This document shows, one piece after another, positions 833 through 19,656 of a DNA stretch of 19,656 nucleotides. Source of the stretch: Candidatus Saganbacteria bacterium (GTDB lineage: Bacteria > Margulisbacteria > WOR-1 > JAKLHX01); contig JAPLKZ010000003.1 of the NCBI GenBank assembly GCA_026387835.1, forward strand, positions 9,573-29,228, given 5' to 3'. The notes below the pieces were generated by a model. It saw nothing but the letters and a program-made list of their open reading frames with translations. It did not search any database and was not told the DNA's origin. Numbering within the stretch: position 1 is the first letter of the stretch; the number at the start of each line of letters is the position of its first letter. A program made the position numbers and the translations under genes.

Positions 833-2704
833 CTACACTTCGATAGGAAGGATAAACAGAGGAATACCCTCGGCGTAAAGATGTTTCTGTATGGTGAACA
901 ATGTATAGTTGTGCATGAATTTTGTGAAGAAAGTTTCGTTTGGGTAAATGACCTGCCCTCCGAAGAAGGTCGCGTTCGGATATTTTTTGATTATCTTCGG
1001 GGCGATCTTCTCAAGTTCAGCTACAGTATCGATGCCGGACAAAGCAAACCCTTCCGTATGGTAACCGTGCCGACGGACAAGTTCGATGTACCTGTCGAGT
1101 TCCATCTTGACTTTCCGTTCAACTTTTTCAACCTGGTCATGTCCCCTGAAAGCAGACGCGTCGATCAGGCCCATCTGGACGAACACAACGTTCTTAAAAG
1201 TACTCCCGAACGAGCGGAATATGCTGAGTACTGTCTTGATCCCTATTCCCGTAAAATCCTTTACAAGTATGATTGCTGTTTTATTGCGAGGGTCAAATTC
1301 CCTTGAACTTTCAGGCACTACGGGGATGCCGGGAACCGGGTTCAATGCCTCGACCTCATCGACCATCCTATCAAGGCTTTTGACCTGATTGTCTGTCTGT
1401 TCGTAGTTTTTCTTTATCAGGAACATCAGGATCGCGACCGAACCTGTTATTACAAGGGTGATCCAGCCTCCGTCATGGAACTTGACGATTATGACGGTCG
1501 TCAATATAAAAGCCGTTATTGAAAGTCCGATCCCGTTCACCAGAAGTTTTTTAAACCAGCCTCGGAGCCTTTTTCGCGCAACCCACCAGTACCTTACCAT
1601 CCCGAGCTGTGAAAGGCAGAACGTTATAAAAACGTTGATGCTGTAAAGGACTATCAGATATACCACGGAACCGTTAGTCGCGGCCATAAGGATGAAAGAT
1701 GCGACACCCATTATAAGTATGCCGTTCATCGTGACGAGCCGGTCCGACAAAAGGGCAAACCTTTTAGGGGCCCAGCGGTCGATGGCCATATTGGAAAGTA
1801 CCCTCGGGCCGTCGATGAACCCGGTCTGCGCGGCCACAAAAAGTATCGCTCCCTCCGAAATAAGGGTCAACAGGATGAAAATATATCCCGGCAAACCCCA
1901 GCTCCCGGCGATCCTGTCAAAAAGAACCGCATTGAGCGTCTTCCCGAATGCCGGCTGGATATTAAAAAGGGTATAACCGAGCATAAGACCTAATACGACT
2001 GTCGCGAGAGATATCATCATATATTTCATCGTGTTCTTGGCGGTCTTGACCTTCGGTTCCCTGAGGATAGGCAGCCCGTTGCTGACAGCCTCTATTCCCG
2101 TATATGTTCCGGCTCCCATACTGAAAGCACGCAATAAGAGCACTAACAAACCGAACATGCCGATCTCATGCCTCGTGGCAGCAATATCATTAGCAGTCGA
2201 TGCGGCAATGCTCGTGAAATTTGGCAGATGTGTAGTGATCGTGACAATTATGACGATCAGATGTGTTATTACAAAAAGTAAAAAGATCGGCATAAGGGTC
2301 AGGACAGATTCTTTTACGCCCCTGAGATTAAGTACTATAAGCACTAACAAAATAGCCAGTGCAAAATAGATCTTGTATTGATAATAGGACGGGGGGAGAA
2401 GACTGAACATGGCATCAGCCCCGCTTGCTATAGAAAGAGTGATCGTGAGCATATAATCTATCAGAAGCGCGCAGCCCGATATCATCCCCGTGACCGGCGA
2501 CAGAAGCTTGCTTGCGACGATATATCCGCCGCCTCCCTGGGGAAAAAGTTCTATTATCTGGGAATAACTTTCACTTATGATAAATATTGTCGCGGCGGTC
2601 ATAAGCGCCACGATCAGGCCCAGGTAATGATGTTTTCCCAATGTGATGAATGCCTCAGGGGGACCGTAGCAGGAAGATGAAAGACCGTCAGACCCTAATC
2701 CCAC
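833..2704 (-). CDS. APC-superfamily permease with a C-terminal cytoplasmic domain. It resembles the KimA/YdaO-type K+ importers, which are often annotated as amino acid permeases.
   Basis: 623-aa ORF with about 12 hydrophobic segments. The N-terminal SDGLSSSCYGPPE block and the FPQGGGGYIVA block resemble KimA (SSDALSSVAYGTE and YPQGGGAYIV). A soluble tail of ~170 aa follows. The start is a GTG with no SD and the N-terminus looks short for the family (see finding). Confidence 0.8.
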   Translation of the reverse strand: MGLGSDGLSSSCYGPPEAFITLGKHHYLGLIVALMTAATIFIISESYSQIIELFPQGGGGYIVASKLLSPVTGMISGCALLIDYMLTITLSIASGADAMFSLLPPSYYQYKIYFALAILLVLIVLNLRGVKESVLTLMPIFLLFVITHLIVIIVTITTHLPNFTSIAASTANDIAATRHEIGMFGLLVLLLRAFSMGAGTYTGIEAVSNGLPILREPKVKTAKNTMKYMMISLATVVLGLMLGYTLFNIQPAFGKTLNAVLFDRIAGSWGLPGYIFILLTLISEGAILFVAAQTGFIDGPRVLSNMAIDRWAPKRFALLSDRLVTMNGILIMGVASFILMAATNGSVVYLIVLYSINVFITFCLSQLGMVRYWWVARKRLRGWFKKLLVNGIGLSITAFILTTVIIVKFHDGGWITLVITGSVAILMFLIKKNYEQTDNQVKSLDRMVDEVEALNPVPGIPVVPESSREFDPRNKTAIILVKDFTGIGIKTVLSIFRSFGSTFKNVVFVQMGLIDASAFRGHDQVEKVERKVKMELDRYIELVRRHGYHTEGFALSGIDTVAELEKIAPKIIKKYPNATFFGGQVIYPNETFFTKFMHNYTLFTIQKHLYAEGIPLFILPIEV

Positions 2705-2864
2705 CCAGGCAAAAAAAGCTATCTGAATATATTCTTTAAAAGTGTAAAAAAACCAATTTTTTCTTTAGGCATTGCATCAAAAAGACATCTTATCATGAAT
2801 TCCGTCAATATTCTATTGATTTTAACGGTTTACAATGGCCTGAAAAAGTGATATTGTTTATGCC

Positions 2865-3290
2865 ATGAAAAAGGTCCTGTTCATCTGCACGGGTAATTCC
2901 TGCCGGAGCCAGATGGCCGAAGGTCTGCTCAGGGATATGGCAGGCGACAGATTTGAAGTCTTCAGTGCGGGCGTCAGTCCCTCGAGCGTCCACCCGCTGG
3001 CAATAGAAGCTATGAAAGAAGCGGGGATAGACATAACGGGCCACGAGTCTAAAGATGTGTCAAAAGTCCTGGGACGGAAATTCGATTATGTTATAACAGT
3101 ATGCGATCATGCCAAGCAGATGTGCCCTTTCGTTCCCGGGGGCCACAAGAAGATCCACTGGAGCACAGAAGACCCCGTCGGCCTGGGGATAGCAGAGTTC
3201 CTCAAGGTCAGGGATAAGCTTAAAAAGAACATCGAAAAATTTCTCGCTCAGGAAGCCAAAGAATCTTCCGAAAAACTCCAGAAAAACTGA
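2865..3290 (+). CDS. arsC: Arsenate reductase of the thioredoxin-coupled LMW-PTP family (ArsC) / low-molecular-weight phosphotyrosine phosphatase
   Basis: The P-loop is CTGNSCRSQMAEG (CX5R). The downstream Cys pair in TVCDHAKQMCP aligns with Cys82/Cys89 of Staphylococcus aureus pI258 ArsC (TLCSDADNNCP). Length is 141 aa. Confidence 0.85.
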   Translation: MKKVLFICTGNSCRSQMAEGLLRDMAGDRFEVFSAGVSPSSVHPLAIEAMKEAGIDITGHESKDVSKVLGRKFDYVITVCDHAKQMCPFVPGGHKKIHWSTEDPVGLGIAEFLKVRDKLKKNIEKFLAQEAKESSEKLQKN

Positions 3291-3315
3291 AATTCACGCA
3301 AATATTATCCGATAA

Positions 3316-3335
3316 AGGATTGTAATCCTATTTTT
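3316..3335 (+). terminator. Weak candidate intrinsic terminator after arsC
   Basis: AGGAT-tgta-ATCCT (5-bp stem) followed by A-TTTTT-A, about 25 nt after the arsC stop. The stem is short, so support is weak. Confidence 0.3.
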
Positions 3336-3355
3336 ATTATCAGAGGGGATATATC

Positions 3356-4513
3356 GTGCCAACGAACATTTACAGGTTAGTGCCAGGTGGTTATCTGAAA
3401 CCATCCGTATTGATGGAAAAGCGGAATCTGATAGGCGGTCTCATATTCAATGAACTTTCAAGATTACCATCAGCGCGAAGGATAGATATCGTGCCGTTCA
3501 TTCGTGAAGACGGCATTTTGCCGGTATCAAAAAAACAGATGGTGATACTTTTAAAGCCCGAACTGTGCACGGACAAAGCGCTGACAAAGGCTTTTATCAA
3601 CAAAACTTTGATGGCGATCGCAGGGAACGGTTACAAGGTTCAGGCTATATCTGCTGTCTCCGGTCCTTTTATGAAAGACGCGGGAATTATCGAAAGACAT
3701 TACGGAGTGATAAACAGGATATTCAGGTTGGGTGCCGAAGCCCTGCCGGAAACAGCGAGAAAAAGATTTACCGACATATTCGGATCAAGCCCGGAAGATA
3801 AAAATGTCTTTTCAGGGAAGCAGGCAATAGAAACACTGGACCTTTCGGCAGAAGTCCTTATGGAAAAATGGATGACTGGCGATAAACCGGAAAAATTAGC
3901 GCCTGGAATGTACGCAAAAAAGATCACTATCGACGGCCCTTCCCCTGAAGGATCAAGGACAGTCTGCATCCTTAACGGATTTCATGCAGTCCAGTTAAGT
4001 CATTTTACATCCCAAAACAGCAGGGTCATAGCGATGCTGATCGCCAGCGATTCGCCTTATTTTCCGGACTGGTGGGGCAGGATCCAGTCAATAGCCGCAA
4101 GATCCAGTTATTCAAGCTCCTGGGCGGTTATGAGGAATGATGTATTCGGTGCTACCGATCCCACAAAGGCGAAAAAAGGCAGCCTGAGGGAACGGCTTTT
4201 AAGGACAGGGAAAATTCTGGGTGTAGATCAGGTGGATTTCTTCATGAACGGCTGGCATCTTTCGGCGGGGCCGGTGGAATCGATAAATGAAGCAGCTAAC
4301 TGGTTCGGACTTGCTCCGGCCAAGACGGTGATGGGTGAATTGCTTGTTTCAAGCGGGCTGGGTTCATTGGTCCCGGCTCTGGCAGGTAATTGTCTTATTC
4401 AGCAAAACGGCGGAGAAAAACCTGTTTTTGATGTCACTGAAGGCATGGAACCGGATAAGGCTATTGATCTCATAAAAGAAGCGAACAGGACCGCGGCAAT
4501 AAAAAATATTTGA
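3356..4513 (+). CDS. Hypothetical protein with a divergent, expanded nucleoside diphosphate kinase (NDK)-like fold
   Basis: GTG start with a GAGGGG SD 7 nt upstream. These blocks align by eye to NDK: MVILLKPE (NDK IIKPD), GYKVQAISAV (GFKIVGxK), IIERHYG (FYxEH), RVIAMLIAS (PVVAMVxEG), FGATDPTKAKKGSLRERL (LGATNPxxAxPGTIRGDF) and NGWHLSAGPVESINEAANWFG (NxxHGSDSVESAxREIxxWF). The putative phospho-His is H301 (nt 4256-4258). Confidence 0.6.
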   Translation: MPTNIYRLVPGGYLKPSVLMEKRNLIGGLIFNELSRLPSARRIDIVPFIREDGILPVSKKQMVILLKPELCTDKALTKAFINKTLMAIAGNGYKVQAISAVSGPFMKDAGIIERHYGVINRIFRLGAEALPETARKRFTDIFGSSPEDKNVFSGKQAIETLDLSAEVLMEKWMTGDKPEKLAPGMYAKKITIDGPSPEGSRTVCILNGFHAVQLSHFTSQNSRVIAMLIASDSPYFPDWWGRIQSIAARSSYSSSWAVMRNDVFGATDPTKAKKGSLRERLLRTGKILGVDQVDFFMNGWHLSAGPVESINEAANWFGLAPAKTVMGELLVSSGLGSLVPALAGNCLIQQNGGEKPVFDVTEGMEPDKAIDLIKEANRTAAIKNI

Positions 4514-9090: not shown

Positions 9091-9251
9091 GGTTAAAGTC
9101 CCTGATTCACCGGCTCGCTTTCTGATCCCGGCTCCATATCCACCTATATATCTCAACTTAGATGAAATTTCTTGTTTTTTTACTCGACAATATATTATAG
9201 AGAACTATTGGACTTGAACCCGGGATCGCATGAAAAATGAGGTTATGTATC

Positions 9252-10430
9252 ATGAGCATTAAAAGAACCGGTATTTTGGTAAGTCATTCCGGTTATGCGG
9301 TACATAACCGCCTTGCGGATGCCGAAAAACGCGGCAAGCTTCCTTCTGTCACCGGTTTTCACAGGATCGACGGGCCCGGGTCAGGGCTCAACATGCCTCT
9401 GGTGCAAAGGACATACTTTTCTTTTAGAGAAGTCCCTGGCCGCCTTGACAGGGACCCTTCCTGGAAATGGTCAAAAGGGTTGCCGCGCACGGTCGATTTT
9501 ACGATCAACACAGGAACAAAAATAACAGCTTACCCTTTTAAACCCGGGAAATTAGCGATCGAAAGCATGGATTATCCAGACCTGCGGCATGTTGAAGGTA
9601 AAACCGGGCAAATACCGCCGGTAAAAAGGAACTGGCTGCTTAAGATCATGGAGACATTCGGACTAAATGGCGTGATGATGACCATAGAAAATACCGATGA
9701 AAGGACGATGTCTGGAGGACTTGGCGGTTCGGCGACAGTAAGCACTTCAGTAGCAATATTAGCAGCTCATTTAGCGGGGATAGCGCTGTCAAAAGCACAA
9801 ACAGTTTCATTGGCTTCTGTCTATGAAAATGATCTGGGGGTGAGCCTGACAGGCACACAGGAACAATGGAACGTGGTCCGGGGAGGCATAGCTGATCATG
9901 TGTGGTTTCCTTTTGGAAGGCCGGGTCTGGGTACGGGATACGGGGATGCGGTTGTCAGGACACTTTTACAGCCCGCGCAATACGGTGACGTGCGGCCTCA
10001 TATGGCCTTGATCCATTCCGGCAGGATGCATGCTAGCAAGGCTGTTAACCGTGAGTGGCTGAGGAAGATAAAAACTGCGGCCGGATACAGAGATTACGCG
10101 GGATTACTTCCTTTGGCTTATGATTTTGCGGAAGCCGTGCGTACCCGGGACTGGGGAAAAGCTTCAGAACTTATAGAAAAATACAGAGCGATCCGTACGA
10201 CACTGTGCAGAGAATATATGTCAGGCTCAGAGTGGCTTTATGAGATCGCTTCAAGGAACAAGACTGTAATATTCCCGCTTGGCGCGGGTGGCGGGGGCGT
10301 ATGTCTGAATTTTGGCGAGACACCGGGCGCAGTTGAAAGTACGGTAGCTGAAGTCAGGGCTATTGATCCCGGACGTATCATAGACTTTGATCTCAGAGAA
10401 AAAGGTCACATATTGGAGAACGTATCATGA
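9252..10430 (+). CDS. GHMP-family sugar kinase (HddA/fucokinase-like anomeric kinase) with an N-terminal extension
   Basis: Motif II MSGGLGGSATVS, GTQEQ (a variant of the GGxQDQ motif of the HddA/Fkp class) and motif III PLGAGGGG. The ATG at 9252 has a GAGG 9 nt upstream. The ORF-track ATG at 9237 is an alternative start. Confidence 0.8.
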   Translation: MSIKRTGILVSHSGYAVHNRLADAEKRGKLPSVTGFHRIDGPGSGLNMPLVQRTYFSFREVPGRLDRDPSWKWSKGLPRTVDFTINTGTKITAYPFKPGKLAIESMDYPDLRHVEGKTGQIPPVKRNWLLKIMETFGLNGVMMTIENTDERTMSGGLGGSATVSTSVAILAAHLAGIALSKAQTVSLASVYENDLGVSLTGTQEQWNVVRGGIADHVWFPFGRPGLGTGYGDAVVRTLLQPAQYGDVRPHMALIHSGRMHASKAVNREWLRKIKTAAGYRDYAGLLPLAYDFAEAVRTRDWGKASELIEKYRAIRTTLCREYMSGSEWLYEIASRNKTVIFPLGAGGGGVCLNFGETPGAVESTVAEVRAIDPGRIIDFDLREKGHILENVS

Positions 10431-11599
10431 TAGGTTTTATTTTGGCTGAAGGCATGGGATCAAGGCTCTATCCGCTGACTTTAAGGAAAGCGAATCAGAT
10501 CAGCATCGAAAGAGGTATTCCGCCACGCTGTTTTAATATAAATGTCAGGCCAAAGCCCCTGGCCCCGATAACGAACCGTCCGATGATATATTCGTCACTT
10601 TTGATGATGAGATCGTTGGGAGTCGACAAAACATTCGTAACAACGGGGGTATGGAACGATATCTATATGAAACATTTCGAGCAGCTTGGTGTTGATGCAT
10701 ATCTTGTCAAGAACAGGCGGCTGGGATATTTCGAGAAGATAGTCAAGATCGTCATGGAAGAGGTCCGGAAAGGTTATAAAGGGACCGTGGTCGTTCTAAG
10801 CGGCGATATTGTCTCGAATATCGATCCCCGTCCCGCGTTAGCTGTACATGAAAGACAAAAAGCCACGGCAACCATTGTATCAACACCCATAACAGATGAT
10901 GTAAGGACCTGTTCTCCTATAGTTATAGAAGATCCGCTTCAAAAGAGCGGCCTGATCGCTGATTACCGCCATAAGCTGTCCCGGCAAGATGCGTTGAAAC
11001 TGAGCCGCTACAGGAATTCATCCGTTTATCTATTTGACACTTCCTTTTTTGAGATGGTAGCCGGAATGGCCGATGAAGACGATTTAGATTTCAGCGAAGA
11101 TATCTTTCCATGGCTGGTAAAAAACAGGAGTGCCAAATTTATGGGATATGCTTCGGACGCTCTGTGGGCAGATGTCGGCGAGCTTGACTATTATTTAAAT
11201 ATTCAACGGGCGGCACTGGATCAGAGACTGCATTTTCCGTATACAGAGGAGTTTTATCCTCAGAGCAGAATATATGCTGCTGGCAGATATAGAGTCTTAG
11301 GCCCGAGCATTATCTCCGAGGGTTGTGATATCGGAAGAGGCAGCGTTATCGGGCCGTATGCTGTGATAGGAGAAGGATGGGGGATCGGTTCCAATTCAAA
11401 AATCATCCGGTCCGTATTTTGGCCTGTTGATATCGGCCCGTCAGGATACCCGGGATGTTTTACGGTTGAGTCTGGAGTGACGGTCGCAGACTGCGCTGTC
11501 GGCAGCGGCCGCATCGACAGAGATGCGCGTGAAGAGGTCATCGTGAGTAACGGATCAGAAACTTTTCGCAGACAGCTGAATATTTCGGGTGGTCATTGA
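10427..11599 (+). CDS. Sugar-1-phosphate nucleotidylyltransferase (GMPPB/mannose-1-P guanylyltransferase-like) with a C-terminal left-handed beta-helix
   Basis: AEGMGSRLYPLT...RPKPLAPITNRP signature, interrupted by an insert. Also LSGDIVSNID and WADVGELDYY, and hexapeptide repeats GCDIGRGSVIGPYAVIGEGWGIGSNSKI. The start overlaps the kinase stop (ATGA at 10427-10430). Confidence 0.85.
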   Translation: MIGFILAEGMGSRLYPLTLRKANQISIERGIPPRCFNINVRPKPLAPITNRPMIYSSLLMMRSLGVDKTFVTTGVWNDIYMKHFEQLGVDAYLVKNRRLGYFEKIVKIVMEEVRKGYKGTVVVLSGDIVSNIDPRPALAVHERQKATATIVSTPITDDVRTCSPIVIEDPLQKSGLIADYRHKLSRQDALKLSRYRNSSVYLFDTSFFEMVAGMADEDDLDFSEDIFPWLVKNRSAKFMGYASDALWADVGELDYYLNIQRAALDQRLHFPYTEEFYPQSRIYAAGRYRVLGPSIISEGCDIGRGSVIGPYAVIGEGWGIGSNSKIIRSVFWPVDIGPSGYPGCFTVESGVTVADCAVGSGRIDRDAREEVIVSNGSETFRRQLNISGGH

Positions 11600-11619
11600 T
11601 CTAAAGAAAGGTAATTTAT

Positions 11620-12312
11620 ATGTCAGTTTCTTTGAACAGGGCCAGGACAGTCGCGATATTCGATATGAACGGGACAATGATAAATGACGGCCGGTTTCAT
11701 AGAAATGCATGGATGTCATATTGTCAGAAAAAAGGTCATGCTACTATCACGCCTGACATATACAGCCGTCATATTGCCGGCCGCAATAACCGTGACATTT
11801 TGACATTTTTTCTTGGCCGCCAACCGGATCCTGATGAATTGCATCTATTAGGCAGGGAAAAGGAAGCCATCTACAGGGATTCTTATAGACCATTCCTTGC
11901 GGAGGTTCCGGGATTGACGGTGTTCCTTGACCAGCTAAAAAAGGCAGGGATACCCAGAGTCCTAGCGACTTCTGCCGGCAAAGAGAATATTGACTTTGTG
12001 CTGGACGGATTGAATTTGCGCCGTTTCTTTTCACAAATAATCGGAGGAGACGGCATCAAAAACGGAAAGCCGGCGCCGGACATATTTCTTAAGGCAGCCG
12101 AGGTCGCAGGCAAAGCTCCTCAGGATTGCGTGGTATTTGAGGATGCCTTCTCGGGGTTCAAAGCTGCGTTATCCGCGGGGTCAAAATGTGTGGGGCTTAT
12201 TACAAATCTCACAGAAGAGCAGATAATCGCAGCCGGGGTAGATCTGGCAATAAAGGATTTTACTCAGATATCAGTGAGCATATTGGACAGCCTATTTGTG
12301 AAAAAAGGATGA
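11620..12312 (+). CDS. HAD-superfamily hydrolase or phosphomutase, beta-phosphoglucomutase-like subfamily
   Basis: Motif I VAIFDMNGT, motif II LATSAG, motif III KNGKPAPDIF and motif IV VVFEDAFSGFKAALSAG. Its size implies a cap domain (230 aa). Confidence 0.85.
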   Translation: MSVSLNRARTVAIFDMNGTMINDGRFHRNAWMSYCQKKGHATITPDIYSRHIAGRNNRDILTFFLGRQPDPDELHLLGREKEAIYRDSYRPFLAEVPGLTVFLDQLKKAGIPRVLATSAGKENIDFVLDGLNLRRFFSQIIGGDGIKNGKPAPDIFLKAAEVAGKAPQDCVVFEDAFSGFKAALSAGSKCVGLITNLTEEQIIAAGVDLAIKDFTQISVSILDSLFVKKG

Positions 12313-12319
12313 ACAGGAA

Positions 12320-13477
12320 ATGCACAGAGCGAATATAATACCTGAGGCGAACAGATACGCGCAGTTATTGACGACACATATAACACGTCAGCGGGGTGCC
12401 GCGTTCAGGCCTTTTGACGGGGTAATGACCCTGCCGAGGCAGCTGGAGATCCATCTTTCAAACGATCTGGGAAAGCGCTGCAATATAAATTGCATTCATT
12501 GCCAGGGGCAGCACCTCCAGCAGGTAATAACGCCTTTCTATGATAAGGTCTCTTCTCTGGTCGCAAAATTAAAAGGACGGATCCCTCTTTTTGTTCTGTC
12601 AGGAGCTTATTCTGAACCGGCATTGAACGAAAAGCTGATCGATCTGCTGGAACTCATTAAATCGACGGGTTCAAGTTTCGGCCTGCATACGAACGGCACG
12701 CTTCTCAGGGGTTTGGAAAGAAAGAACGGTTTTTTGACAAGACTGCATGCGGCCGCGGGTTCAGAAGATGATTACATGACCGTGGCGATCGATGCATGCA
12801 GTCCGGAATCCTTTGAAAAGACAAAAAGAAGATCAGGCAGACTTTATGACGAGGTGATCACCGGCCTTAGAGAATTGTATAGGATCAGGACGCAAACGCC
12901 AAAAGAGACATTGAAGACCAGGATAACATATCTGTTGAACGACTATAACAGTGATCCGACCGAGCTTCAAAAATTTGTCGAGCTGATGAGATCGGTAGAA
13001 GTGGATTCAGTCAGGTTCGCGGTGCCTTACGCGCCTTACGGTACACCTCTTGCACAGTGTCTTGAACATAAGGAGGAGGTGGAACTGCCTTTTTATGAGA
13101 AATACTGGCACGCCATCGCGCCTCTACTGTCAAAAGTGCCAGGTCAAAGGACTCATGTCTTTGTAATGACACCTGAAAAACAGGACGTGGAAAAAATAGA
13201 TTTTTATCACTGTTACTACGGATATTACATGATAAATCTCGGAGCTGACGGGTTTTTCTACAGGTGTTCGGCTGTTGCGCATCCGGGGTTTAAAAGCCAC
13301 AGGCTAGGTCCGGTCACGGATGACCTTAATGAGTTTTACGCGATGATACTTAAGAACCAGCAGGAAGGCTTTGACCCTATGAAATGTTGCCTTCCTTTCG
13401 GGGCAAGATGCAACAGGGCATCGATCGAGATCAACAGGCAGTTTGACGACGAGTATTATCCTGATAAAGAGGTCTGA
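12320..13477 (+). CDS. Radical SAM enzyme with a C-terminal Cys-rich (twitch/SPASM-like) region
   Basis: C54-N-I-N-C58-I-H-C61 (CX3CX2C, nt 12479-12502), SGAYSEPAL (the GGE-motif position) and LHTNGT. The C-terminal region has C298-X12-G311-X4-C316, then C356-C357-X6-C364. Confidence 0.85.
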   Translation: MHRANIIPEANRYAQLLTTHITRQRGAAFRPFDGVMTLPRQLEIHLSNDLGKRCNINCIHCQGQHLQQVITPFYDKVSSLVAKLKGRIPLFVLSGAYSEPALNEKLIDLLELIKSTGSSFGLHTNGTLLRGLERKNGFLTRLHAAAGSEDDYMTVAIDACSPESFEKTKRRSGRLYDEVITGLRELYRIRTQTPKETLKTRITYLLNDYNSDPTELQKFVELMRSVEVDSVRFAVPYAPYGTPLAQCLEHKEEVELPFYEKYWHAIAPLLSKVPGQRTHVFVMTPEKQDVEKIDFYHCYYGYYMINLGADGFFYRCSAVAHPGFKSHRLGPVTDDLNEFYAMILKNQQEGFDPMKCCLPFGARCNRASIEINRQFDDEYYPDKEV

Positions 13478-13479
13478 TA

Positions 13480-14418
13480 ATGATACAAGGAAAGATCCAG
13501 CTCGGACAGATAGGTTATGGATACTGGGGGCAGCGGCTCTACAGCTATTTTTCTGCGCATCCGGGATTCGAGGTCACAAAAATCGCAGTCAGAGAGCCGC
13601 TCAAGGCCAGAAGCGGCCTGAACTGCAGAATGACTTCAGCCCAAGATATTTACGATGACAAGAACATTAAGGCAGTAATTGTTGCGACCCCGGTTGAGAC
13701 CCATTACGGGATCGCAAAGGATGTCCTGGCAAGCGGCAAGCACCTGTTTTGCGAAAAAGTGTTCACAGGTACAGCAAAAGAGGCCGAAGAATTACAGAGA
13801 ATGGCAGAACAGAGACAGCTTAAGATAATGGTCGATTATACGTTCACGTTTTCACATGGCGTGAGAAGAATGGTCGAAATAGCGAAGTCCGGGCAGATCG
13901 GAAAGCTGTCTTCGGCAACGTTCGAGATGGGCCAATTTGGTCACTTCAGGCCTGAAGGAGTGTATCCCCTCCTTGGCAGCCACATGCTAAGTATACTCAA
14001 CATGCTATATCCCCTTCATGAATTTGAATTTGTCAGGAATGATCTGCTGGTAAGGGCAGGGATCACGGAATCAGGCTGGTTATCATTTGCACATTATCGT
14101 CTGCCTTTTGGCGGACTTTTTAATTTGAGTTTGAATAATCCGGAAAAGACCAGGAATATAGCGCTTTACGGCACGCTTGGGACAGTTGCTTATAACATGT
14201 ACTCAAGTCCTGCCGTTAAACTTGCCTGTTTTGACAGGGAATGTGTTCATCAGGTAAAACAGGATACCGGACAGGAATTATGCAAAGGAGGCGAGAATGA
14301 CAATCTTGCCCTCAGTGTCGATGCTTTTTACGAGATGATCGCATCTTCCGGCCCATCAAATATCGATTGTGCAGTAGAGGTTGCCAGGGCGCTCGAACGG
14401 ATCTCCTTAGGAAAATAA
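13480..14418 (+). CDS. GFO/IDH/MocA-family NAD(P)-dependent oxidoreductase
   Basis: N-terminal Rossmann LGQIGYGYWG, a CEK(V) block after ATPVETHY, and a 312-aa two-domain size. AGAGG SD; the start is 2 nt after the radical SAM stop. Confidence 0.8.
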   Translation: MIQGKIQLGQIGYGYWGQRLYSYFSAHPGFEVTKIAVREPLKARSGLNCRMTSAQDIYDDKNIKAVIVATPVETHYGIAKDVLASGKHLFCEKVFTGTAKEAEELQRMAEQRQLKIMVDYTFTFSHGVRRMVEIAKSGQIGKLSSATFEMGQFGHFRPEGVYPLLGSHMLSILNMLYPLHEFEFVRNDLLVRAGITESGWLSFAHYRLPFGGLFNLSLNNPEKTRNIALYGTLGTVAYNMYSSPAVKLACFDRECVHQVKQDTGQELCKGGENDNLALSVDAFYEMIASSGPSNIDCAVEVARALERISLGK

Positions 14419-14509
14419 ATTCACTGAAATTTCCAGAAAATCCGTTCGATAGCTTTGTAGACGGGAAACCTAAGGCAATAATAGCCCAAAGATCTAAAAG
14501 GAGAAAGAA

Positions 14510-15802
14510 ATGTCTTTAATAAATAATGGATCGATCGCGAAGAGGCTTAGCGAAATCGGAACGAAAGAATACGTTTTACGCAATAGACCTGATGCGTTAT
14601 CCGTTTCAAAGCGGGTAATGATCACAGGAGGAGCCGGCAATGTCGGCAGTAATCTTGGCATGGCTCTTAGGAAAAGAGATTTTAATGTTGCTGCTTTTGA
14701 TAACCTGAGAAAAGGTCACCGCGCGGCTGCGGCCATAGCGGGAGCCAGGTTGTTCGTGGGCGATCTTCTGGACCATGATGCCTTGACCGGCGCGCTTAGT
14801 GAATTCAAACCGGACGTTGTAATACATTGCGCAGCGTTGATAGAAGTGGGTGAGTCCGGAAAACTGCCCCAGGAGTACATCAACAACAATGTGGTCGGGA
14901 CCCTTAACCTTTTTCATGCCATGCAGCAGCTTGGAATGAACAGACTCCTGTTCTCCAATACCGCGGCGGTATATGACGGTACGCTGGGACGCCCGTTGAA
15001 AGAGACCGATCCGTGGGATGCAAGGAATGTCTACGGCGCCACAAAGGGGGCAGATGCTTTGATCTGCAAGCAGGGAAAGTTATTCCCCAGTTTGAAGTCT
15101 GTACATCTGCATTATTTTAATGTTTGTGGGGCTCCGGAAACAGGAGTGCTTGGGGAAGACCACGGTATCGCGACCGAATCCCATATCGTCCCGATAATAT
15201 TGCAGATAGCACTTTATAATCTGCTGAAAAAATACGGTTTGGACCTCCCTTTCTACGATCCGGGAGCGCTCGCAACTATATATGGTAAAGCCGGCAGGGA
15301 CCGTTTAAAAGTATTTGGTAATAATTATAATACGCCTGACGGCACCTGCATCAGGGATTATATTGGGATGGGCATAAAGGTATTCTTTCATCTTCAGGCC
15401 ATACAAAGGCTGTTATCCGGAAATATGGAATCGCATTATGAGGCATTCAACCTCGGGACAAAAAAAGGACACTCGGTACTGGACATATTGAACAGATGCG
15501 AGAATGTTGTCAGGCAACAGGTCGGTCTTCCTGCTATAGAAACACACGGATTGCCACTTGATTCGGACAAAAGGCTTATACCTGCCGAAATAGCCGAAAG
15601 AAGACAGGGAGATGCGGATTTTCTCGTTGCCGACCCTGAAAAAGCCAATTCTATCCTGGATCCCAGAAACAGCAGGCCGGTGCAAAATATCGACAAAGAG
15701 ATTGAATTTGCTTTATGGTCCATGCTTTACAGGCCTCTGGGGTACGAGCATCGTCCTGCGGTAACAATGGATCATCAGGTGCTTAGATTTTACGAGACAT
15801 AG
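14510..15802 (+). CDS. Extended SDR, UDP-glucose 4-epimerase (GalE)-like, with insertions and terminal extensions
   Basis: VMITGGAGNVGS, FSNTAAVY (Thr151 at the catalytic Ser/Thr position), Y175-G-A-T-K179, HYFNVCGA, FGNNYNTPDGTCIRDYI and RRQGDAD. It is 430 aa versus ~340 aa for canonical GalE. AAAGGAG SD. Confidence 0.85.
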   Translation: MSLINNGSIAKRLSEIGTKEYVLRNRPDALSVSKRVMITGGAGNVGSNLGMALRKRDFNVAAFDNLRKGHRAAAAIAGARLFVGDLLDHDALTGALSEFKPDVVIHCAALIEVGESGKLPQEYINNNVVGTLNLFHAMQQLGMNRLLFSNTAAVYDGTLGRPLKETDPWDARNVYGATKGADALICKQGKLFPSLKSVHLHYFNVCGAPETGVLGEDHGIATESHIVPIILQIALYNLLKKYGLDLPFYDPGALATIYGKAGRDRLKVFGNNYNTPDGTCIRDYIGMGIKVFFHLQAIQRLLSGNMESHYEAFNLGTKKGHSVLDILNRCENVVRQQVGLPAIETHGLPLDSDKRLIPAEIAERRQGDADFLVADPEKANSILDPRNSRPVQNIDKEIEFALWSMLYRPLGYEHRPAVTMDHQVLRFYET

Positions 15803-17065: not shown

Positions 17066-17115
17066 TGTTGGATAAATTATAACAGATGGAGACAGCGTGT
17101 TCACCGAAAGATCGA

Positions 17116-18964: not shown

Positions 18965-19656
<692 letters not shown>

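Follow-up and report, generated by a model that had tools for sequence, protein, structure and literature searches.

The cassette in the biotin locus

The DNA analysed here is a stretch of 19,656 nucleotides (hereafter the window, with positions counted from its first letter) from contig JAPLKZ010000003.1 of a metagenome-assembled Candidatus Saganbacteria genome (GCA_026387835.1). Inside a biotin locus it carries a cassette of six genes, among them a radical SAM gene followed by the gene of an oxidoreductase of the GFO/IDH/MocA family (GFO). Three of the encoded proteins (radical SAM, kinase and HAD) each show 100% identity to deposited Candidatus Saganbacteria proteins from a contig of 29,228 bp. 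These two form an uncharacterised pair that is typical of glycan loci and is here coupled to a separate sugar-activation module. The features of the cassette are listed below in their order along the plus strand.

9091..9236, plus strand: spacer between bioD and the kinase gene, 146 nucleotides (nt) without an open reading frame (ORF); possibly holds the cassette promoter, with none flagged there by a consensus scan
9237..10430, plus strand: GHMP-family sugar kinase (Pfam GHMP_kinases_N and fold); start probably at 9252
10427..11599, plus strand: sugar-1-phosphate nucleotidyltransferase with a left-handed beta-helix tail (Pfam NTP_transferase)
11620..12312, plus strand: HAD-IA hydrolase of the beta-phosphoglucomutase/YqaB type (HAD_2), with Asn replacing the second catalytic Asp (FDMNGT)
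12320..13477, plus strand: radical SAM enzyme of a small uncharacterised family (Pfam Radical_SAM, CX3CX2C)
13480..14418, plus strand: GFO oxidoreductase, conserved partner of the radical SAM enzyme (Pfam GFO_IDH_MocA)
14510..15802, plus strand: GalE-like extended short-chain dehydrogenase/reductase (SDR) of 430 amino acids, with an N-terminal extension and an insertion (TIGR01179)

The six same-strand ORFs were called at exactly the coordinates of the original prediction, and the packing described for them was reproduced in full, with the ATGA overlap at 10427-10430, the gaps of 20, 7, 2 and 91 nt, the 146 nt after bioD and the 9 nt that separate the SDR stop from the stop of the convergent lpd. 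All six domain identities read from motifs are borne out by Pfam and NCBIfam (kinase, NTP_transferase, HAD_2, Radical_SAM, GFO_IDH_MocA and Epimerase/GalE). Given that none of the six proteins reaches an equivalog cut-off in NCBIfam and that no characterised pathway of high identity was found, the locus can indeed be regarded as an uncharacterised one for sugar activation and radical tailoring. The biotin setting holds too, with bioB, bioF, a bioH-like hydrolase gene, bioC and bioD upstream, and lpd and then bioA downstream; the convergent lpd encodes a bona fide dihydrolipoyl dehydrogenase (TIGR01350, 440 bits against a cut-off of 409). As had also been claimed, Pfam and NCBIfam reveal no recognisable glycosyltransferase, flippase or polymerase in the window, the minus-strand ORF at 1-770 lying outside these library searches.

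The kinase gene probably starts at 9252 and not at the listed 9237, judging from the deposited NCBI protein of 392 amino acids, which fits an ATG at 9252, and from a GAGG found 9 nt upstream of that ATG. Co-transcription of the cassette is compatible with the data. The consensus scan gave no excess of promoter-like or terminator-like sites over shuffled sequence and zero inside the intergenic gaps, and a search with Rfam revealed neither a riboswitch nor any other regulatory RNA in the vicinity of the cassette.

The radical SAM enzyme and its GFO partner

The neighbourhoods of radical SAM relatives were compared across 107 non-redundant loci, gathered from contig look-ups, from GTDB with one genome for each of 185,579 species (32 loci) and from JGI metagenomes (best 80 of 332 matches); 95 of these loci had room to judge the presence of a GFO gene. 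A GFO orthologue directly adjoins the radical SAM gene in about 62 of the 95 and lies within 2 kb in about 14 more. When adjoining, it is nearly always downstream and its start often overlaps the radical SAM stop codon. Furthermore, the pairwise identities of the two proteins are correlated (r = 0.67 over 66 loci and 2145 pairs), and together with the adjacency this shows the pair to be a conserved, co-inherited unit. The original prediction had taken all six genes as the unit; across loci only the radical SAM and GFO genes are kept together. The 95 loci come from about 15 phyla of bacteria and archaea. Every host of the surveyed loci is uncultivated, and these hosts include Saganbacteria, Margulisiibacteriota, Dehalococcoidia, WOR-3, Elusimicrobia, Omnitrophota, Planctomycetales, Parcubacteria, Acidobacteria, single cells of Pelagibacteraceae, Woesearchaeota, Methanosarcinales and Bathyarchaeia. 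Literature searches returned no paper on the radical SAM/GFO pairing and nothing relevant on Saganbacteria radical SAM enzymes or on the protein family of the reductase AprD3, a possible parallel to GFO.

The radical SAM protein matches PF04055 with 31.8 bits (cut-off 29.5) and belongs to the radical SAM superfamily, the three cysteines of its CX3CX2C motif (C54, C58 and C61) being invariant in an alignment of 37 sequences. The same alignment shows a second set of cysteines in the C-terminal part, following C-X12-G-X4-C with later cysteines in addition, of which C298, C316 and C357 are invariant and C366 is present in 32 of 37; this fourth cysteine is absent from the most divergent members. 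No SPASM match was obtained with Pfam, and this set, as far as its spacing goes, is compatible with a twitch-like auxiliary [4Fe-4S] cluster. No curated NCBIfam model fits the protein, the best match being TIGR04317 with 52 bits against a cut-off of 380. The family is compact. When 1.84 billion cluster representatives were searched exhaustively with its profile, 72 were retrieved at an expectation value (E) <= 1e-30, about 37 of them above 220 bits.

Remote relatives at ~85-150 bits (P0225, P0305, P0276, P0230 and P0237) include giant proteins of 5,700-6,400 amino acids, a TIR-radical SAM-SPASM fusion and a fusion of a nucleotidyltransferase to a radical SAM domain (P0237), the last of which speaks for a nucleotide-sugar context. 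At another locus (L121, 7014-9164) a radical SAM homologue of 716 amino acids contains LAGLIDADG_3 at residues 265-313, which suggests a gene invaded by an intein or a homing endonuclease.

The AlphaFold model of the radical SAM protein is confident (predicted local distance difference test, pLDDT, of 94). Searched against PDB with Foldseek, it retrieved, in order, DesII, SkfB, BlsE, SuiB, MoaA, PqqE, AbmM, anSME, EpeE and SpeY. The top match, DesII (8hzv), has an E of ~1e-13, a template modelling score (TM) of 0.56-0.60 and an identity of 13-15%, while anSME (TM 0.47) and SpeY (0.34-0.38) are weaker matches. Among the top matches, the substrate is a sugar nucleotide for DesII and a sugar nucleoside for BlsE. 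At the level of sequence, DesII was missing from phmmer and profile searches of PDB at E <= 10, and PDB searches with the protein and its profile gave marginal matches only.

DesII, the TDP-4-amino-4,6-dideoxy-D-glucose deaminase/dehydrogenase of the desosamine pathway, thus has the fold nearest to the window enzyme. It acts on a nucleoside diphosphate (NDP)-sugar and gives a 3-keto sugar, on which an aminotransferase and a methyltransferase (DesV and DesVI) then act. At two of the surveyed loci (L008 and L036) a DegT aminotransferase gene stands in the place of GFO with a methyltransferase gene next, an order that parallels DesII, DesV and DesVI as this pathway is generally known. Unlike DesII, the window family possesses the conserved C-terminal cysteine set, suggesting a second cluster, its usual partner is a GFO reductase, and the window has no 4-amino-sugar genes; DesII is also longer by about 100 residues. 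Given that GFO and DegT alternate as the immediate partner, the product of the radical SAM enzyme is best explained as a keto-sugar, which would be reduced by GFO or transaminated by DegT. The cysteine set also invites comparison with BtrN, SpeY and anSME, which are twitch or SPASM dehydrogenases, as it would be compatible with an auxiliary [4Fe-4S] cluster that accepts electrons in the oxidation of an alcohol.

The GFO protein matches PF01408 with 64 bits and belongs to the GFO/IDH/MocA family. Its GxGxxG, E-K pair and G-x-H are conserved, K93 being present in all 67 orthologues and E92 in 65 of them, and the window protein reads EKV where EKP is typical. From the conservation of the nucleotide-binding and E-K motifs, the enzyme is probably active. 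The original prediction had left room for a cyclitol as substrate. On that view, GFO would act as a dehydrogenase of the inositol type, and the radical SAM enzyme would be a cyclitol dehydrogenase of the BtrN/SpeY type. The weak match of GFO to models of inositol 2-dehydrogenase (57 bits, cut-off 355), the twitch-like cysteines, which BtrN and SpeY share, and the presence of AP_endonuc_2 proteins of IolE-like fold at a few loci all agree with it. However, no inositol-phosphate synthase or sugar-phosphate cyclase occurs at any locus examined, SpeY is a far poorer fold match than DesII (TM ~0.36 against ~0.58), and the AP_endonuc_2 genes accompany YfhO rather than GFO. A cyclitol pathway, for which no specific support was obtained, thus appears very improbable.

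Elsewhere, the genes around the pair are mainly those of glycan synthesis. The commonest neighbours are GT2 glycosyltransferases (19 of 123 neighbouring proteins), followed by methyltransferases, B12-radical SAM enzymes, flippases, AP_endonuc_2, NTP transferases, DegT and epimerases; GT4 transferases, a LytR-CpsA-Psr (LCP) ligase and YfhO also lie near the pair in other loci. Genes found between the radical SAM and GFO genes encode methyltransferases (five cases), glycosyltransferase-like proteins, a small radical SAM protein and, at L049, an orthologue of the window nucleotidyltransferase. In L114 the GDP-mannose 4,6-dehydratase gene (Gmd) comes directly after the radical SAM gene, and other next genes where GFO is missing encode a MobA-like nucleotidyltransferase, a methyltransferase, a glycosyltransferase or a hexapeptide acyltransferase. 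The product had been proposed either to be used elsewhere or to be a small molecule in its own right; with GT2 and GT4 enzymes, flippases, LCP ligase and YfhO as the company of the pair, the evidence now leans towards a cell-surface glycan.

In the closest Saganbacteria relatives the pair lies outside any bio locus, its neighbours there being genes for an IspD-like cytidylyltransferase, for an HD protein and for an LCP ligase. The pair could accordingly act on a polyol or a sugar phosphate destined for a teichoic-acid-like polymer of the CDP-alditol type, in place of a hexose nucleotide. Such a role would suit the cytidylyltransferase (IspD/TarI-like), HD-domain protein and LCP ligase that flank the pair in L001 and L009, which are the closest relatives, the YfhO-type proteins near it in Omnitrophota loci and a PdxA-like dehydrogenase of phosphorylated hydroxy acids in L041. 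The majority of loci are nevertheless ordinary GT2/flippase glycan clusters, the top fold matches use a nucleotide-sugar and a sugar nucleoside, and the window itself holds a GalE-like enzyme and a nucleotidyltransferase of hexose type, so that we regard a polyol or sugar phosphate substrate as improbable.

The sugar-activation genes and the history of the cassette

The kinase is barely recognisable by sequence, with 26.5 bits for PF00288 against a cut-off of 22.3, and its AlphaFold model (pLDDT 88) has its best fold matches in galactokinase, in the heptokinase WcbL (TM 0.71/0.80) and in the fucokinase portion of FKP. The earlier assignment to the anomeric type of sugar kinase is therefore backed by the predicted fold. 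Comparison of the sequence with PDB gave opsin matches, which are spurious. The window kinase has no match to the HddA equivalog NF049969, for which a member of its family (P0130) reaches 26 bits where the cut-off is 600. The family counts at least 483 matches and is strongly conserved, with a mean column identity of 62% and an invariant GLGGS; it represents a distinct and as yet unassigned family of sugar kinases. Its members are ~44% identical between Saganbacteria and methanogens, and in Euryarchaeota and Methanobacteriaceae (L042-L044 and L127) the kinase gene comes directly after that of a GT20 OtsA-like glycosyltransferase. In one protein (P0117) the kinase is fused to a nucleotidyltransferase, and at L125 and L126 a nucleotidyltransferase-kinase fusion is followed by HAD and phosphoglucomutase/phosphomannomutase (PGM/PMM) genes.

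The nucleotidyltransferase (PF00483, 66 bits) bears the signature GMGSRLYPLT and weak Hexapep and LbH_EIF2B matches. It belongs to the sugar-1-phosphate nucleotidyltransferases and reaches no equivalog cut-off that would specify the NTP or the sugar; its closest relatives in PDB are a UTP-glucose-1-phosphate uridylyltransferase (8x7s) and GDP-mannose pyrophosphorylases. The HAD protein scores 78 bits for HAD_2. Its designation as a beta-phosphoglucomutase was rejected, as both subfamily cut-offs are missed (TIGR02009, 131.8 against 153.35; TIGR01990, 86.5 against 189.4) and the motif is D-M-N and not D-x-D. Residues 15-19 carry this change (FDMNGT), and the orthologue in L041 (5051-5770) reads FDLNGT with the same Asn, while the HADs beside the nucleotidyltransferase-kinase fusion retain DxD. 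A HAD subtype linked to radical SAM genes and marked by D-x-N would fit the window and L041, yet the motif is found in 11 of the 120 best homologues and the idea was dropped.

Kinase, nucleotidyltransferase and HAD genes constitute a separate recurring module, which also exists without a radical SAM gene. Orthologues of its members were nevertheless found beside the pair in unrelated contigs. L041 has the order radical SAM, GFO, PdxA-like gene, cyclase, kinase (54% identity) and HAD (43%); L009 carries a nucleotidyltransferase (58% identity) with radical SAM (74%) and GFO (55%); and L049 has radical SAM, nucleotidyltransferase (42% identity) and GFO. Though rare, these associations argue for a functional link. 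L041 is the single further locus in which radical SAM, GFO, kinase and HAD occur together. Between its two modules (2193-3826) lie the genes of the PdxA-like dehydrogenase (241 bits, under the equivalog cut-offs) and of an arylformamidase-like cyclase, which hints that the intermediate at that locus may be a phosphorylated hydroxy-acid or sugar-acid.

The SDR contains YGATK and matches TIGR01179 galE in two stretches with 235.2 bits, just under the cut-off of 262.3 because of an insertion at about residues 236-262; over residues 35-235 it is ~40% identical to UDP-glucose 4-epimerases. Its gene follows a gap of 91 nt and possesses its own AAAGGAG ribosome-binding site, and no SDR orthologue was found beside any other radical SAM locus surveyed. 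Of the six genes, this one has the weakest tie to the pathway.

These data bear on whether the cassette is one pathway or two unrelated ones side by side, that is, general sugar salvage or activation genes next to an independent, mobile radical SAM/GFO module working on a common nucleotide-sugar of central metabolism. Indeed, in more than 90% of loci none of the other four genes accompanies the pair, the GalE-like gene does not recur beside it, the HAD comes from a large generic family, and the kinase family is far larger and has contexts of its own, namely the GT20 OtsA-like gene in Methanobacteriaceae and the nucleotidyltransferase fusion with HAD and PGM/PMM. Against such independence stand the tight spacing in the window (a 4-nt overlap and gaps of 20, 7 and 2 nt) and the true orthologues of kinase and HAD (L041) and of nucleotidyltransferase (L009 and L049) that adjoin the pair in unrelated contigs, in L049 even between its two genes. 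Two unrelated pathways therefore seem to us fairly unlikely.

The cassette had further been thought to be acquired horizontally into the bio locus, partly from a compositional step seen in hand counts over 60 nt. Computed over cassette and flanks, no step in G+C content is present (0.475 against 0.455, with individual genes at 0.47-0.50 in the cassette and 0.43-0.50 in the flanks), the hand counts having caught a local fluctuation. The accompanying contrast of Lys-rich flanks and Arg-rich cassette is real, given that the share of lysine among lysine and arginine, K/(K+R), ranges from 0.35 to 0.52 over the six cassette proteins and from 0.57 to 0.83 over the ten flanking ones, but it fails as a sign of foreign origin. 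When K/(K+R) of radical SAM and GFO homologues was regressed on the G+C content of the host loci (r = -0.88 and -0.83, respectively), the window proteins fell inside the scatter (z = -1.4 for the radical SAM protein and -0.5 for GFO) and were no outliers; hence composition gives no solid evidence of recent transfer. Tetranucleotide correlations to the whole window differ weakly, at 0.81-0.84 in the cassette and 0.84-0.93 in the flanks, a contrast that is uninformative at this length. What speaks for horizontal gain is the patchy spread over phyla and the different context in the closest Saganbacteria, and both are suggestive only.

Outside the cassette, the sole unassigned ORF of the window (3356-4513, plus strand, 385 amino acids) lies between a low-molecular-weight phosphotyrosine phosphatase gene and bioB; the protein is soluble, with no hydrophobic segments and no match in Pfam or NCBIfam. 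The minus-strand ORF at 1-770 runs past the left end of the window and opens with MKPRFKGRILMIGCGFVGR, which resembles a Rossmann-type nucleotide-binding start. As listed, lpd begins with a GTG at 17104 (minus strand) and shares 19 nt with the beginning of bioA (17086, plus strand). Since alignment to the lipoamide dehydrogenase model sets in only at residue 14, lpd probably starts further in. At the right end (18965-19656, minus strand) lies the 3' part of a bacterial 16S rRNA gene truncated by the window end (Rfam SSU_rRNA_bacteria, 604 bits, model positions 799-1533), which accounts for the rise in G+C content there and would permit taxonomic placement.

Proposed pathway and its meaning

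The interpretation that we favour, with moderate confidence, is that the two modules act on one sugar and yield an NDP-sugar for a cell-surface glycan. In the first module, kinase, HAD and nucleotidyltransferase would convert a free or phosphorylated sugar into the NDP-sugar by the logic of HddA/GmhB/HddC or of Fkp, and the GalE-like epimerase possibly adjusts C4. In the second, the radical SAM enzyme would take a hydrogen atom off a carbinol carbon of the sugar and turn the NDP-sugar into a keto-sugar, either with loss of the neighbouring hydroxyl, as in diol-dehydratase chemistry, or by a two-electron oxidation via the auxiliary iron-sulfur cluster, the former being slightly favoured. GFO would then reduce the ketone with NAD(P)H, and the resulting deoxy or epimerised NDP-sugar would be placed into a surface glycan by glycosyltransferases encoded elsewhere.

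For the activation steps, HddA(WcbL)/GmhB/HddC, which make GDP-heptose, and Fkp, which makes GDP-fucose, comprise the same three enzyme types as the window module, and an Fkp-like nucleotidyltransferase-kinase fusion occurs within the window kinase family (P0117). Unlike HddA and HddC, the window proteins score far under the cut-offs of the respective NCBIfam models and no GmhA isomerase is present in the window; unlike GmhB, the window HAD is a beta-phosphoglucomutase-like protein of type IA with D-x-N.

Precedents are also found for the second module. The NDP-hexose 2,3-dehydratase EvaA/TylX3, followed by a 3-ketoreductase of the GFO family (KijD10/TylC1), leads to a deoxysugar nucleotide. 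KijD10 (3rbv) is weakly related to the window GFO, with E = 1e-5 over the NAD-binding domain only, and the dehydratase differs from the window radical SAM enzyme in being of Nudix type and using no radical chemistry. In the C3' deoxygenation of apramycin, AprD4, a diol dehydratase of the radical SAM type, makes a keto intermediate and the NADPH reductase AprD3 completes the reaction, according to PMC5461906. As described there, the two-enzyme logic is like that proposed for radical SAM and GFO, the likeness being one of description; the substrate differs, as it is a pseudodisaccharide and not a nucleotide-sugar, and the pathway is one for an antibiotic. Both precedents reach deoxysugars by dehydration and ketoreduction, and for this reason such a dehydration-reduction sequence is favoured here.

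Several points weigh against this interpretation. The fold likeness of the radical SAM model is remote (identity 13-17%, TM ~0.6), and SkfB, SuiB and MoaA, which have peptide or GTP substrates, score almost as high as DesII. Of ~95 loci, only 3 have members of the activation module with the pair and none has the SDR, so the two modules may be mere neighbours in the window. No GFO is nearby at 17 loci, and at four archaeal loci the radical SAM gene is accompanied by a GT2 gene only. Furthermore, a HAD without the canonical acid/base Asp makes a phosphatase or mutase role uncertain. The family is known from computation, every chemical step is inferred, and the data do not discriminate between dehydration and dehydrogenation, nor between reduction and oxidation by GFO. 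On the whole, the original prediction was largely right in what it observed, the G+C step excepted, and right in kind in what it concluded, the six-gene unit being the wrong one.

More tentatively, the pair may represent a previously unrecognised radical route to a modified nucleotide-sugar for the surface glycans of many uncultivated lineages, among them bacteria of the candidate phyla radiation, DPANN archaea, Omnitrophota, Dehalococcoidia, Margulisiibacteriota and SAR11. If so, it would carry out a reaction on an NDP-sugar that no characterised radical SAM enzyme performs, for instance an oxygen-independent deoxygenation or inversion at an unactivated position, and would give a sugar undescribed in these organisms.

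To our knowledge, radical SAM enzymes that act on sugars are few and nearly all come from actinomycete antibiotic pathways. The window family is of a different kind, being clearly delimited, with a fixed reductase partner, in primary cell-envelope glycan loci of lineages that have escaped cultivation. Given that both proteins of the pair are small and soluble and that the radical SAM model is confident, the family is directly testable, and its chemistry, once resolved, would add a nucleotide-sugar reaction and help to annotate the glycan clusters of candidate phyla. The conserved kinase family represents a second unassigned enzyme of sugar activation, common to bacteria and methanogens.

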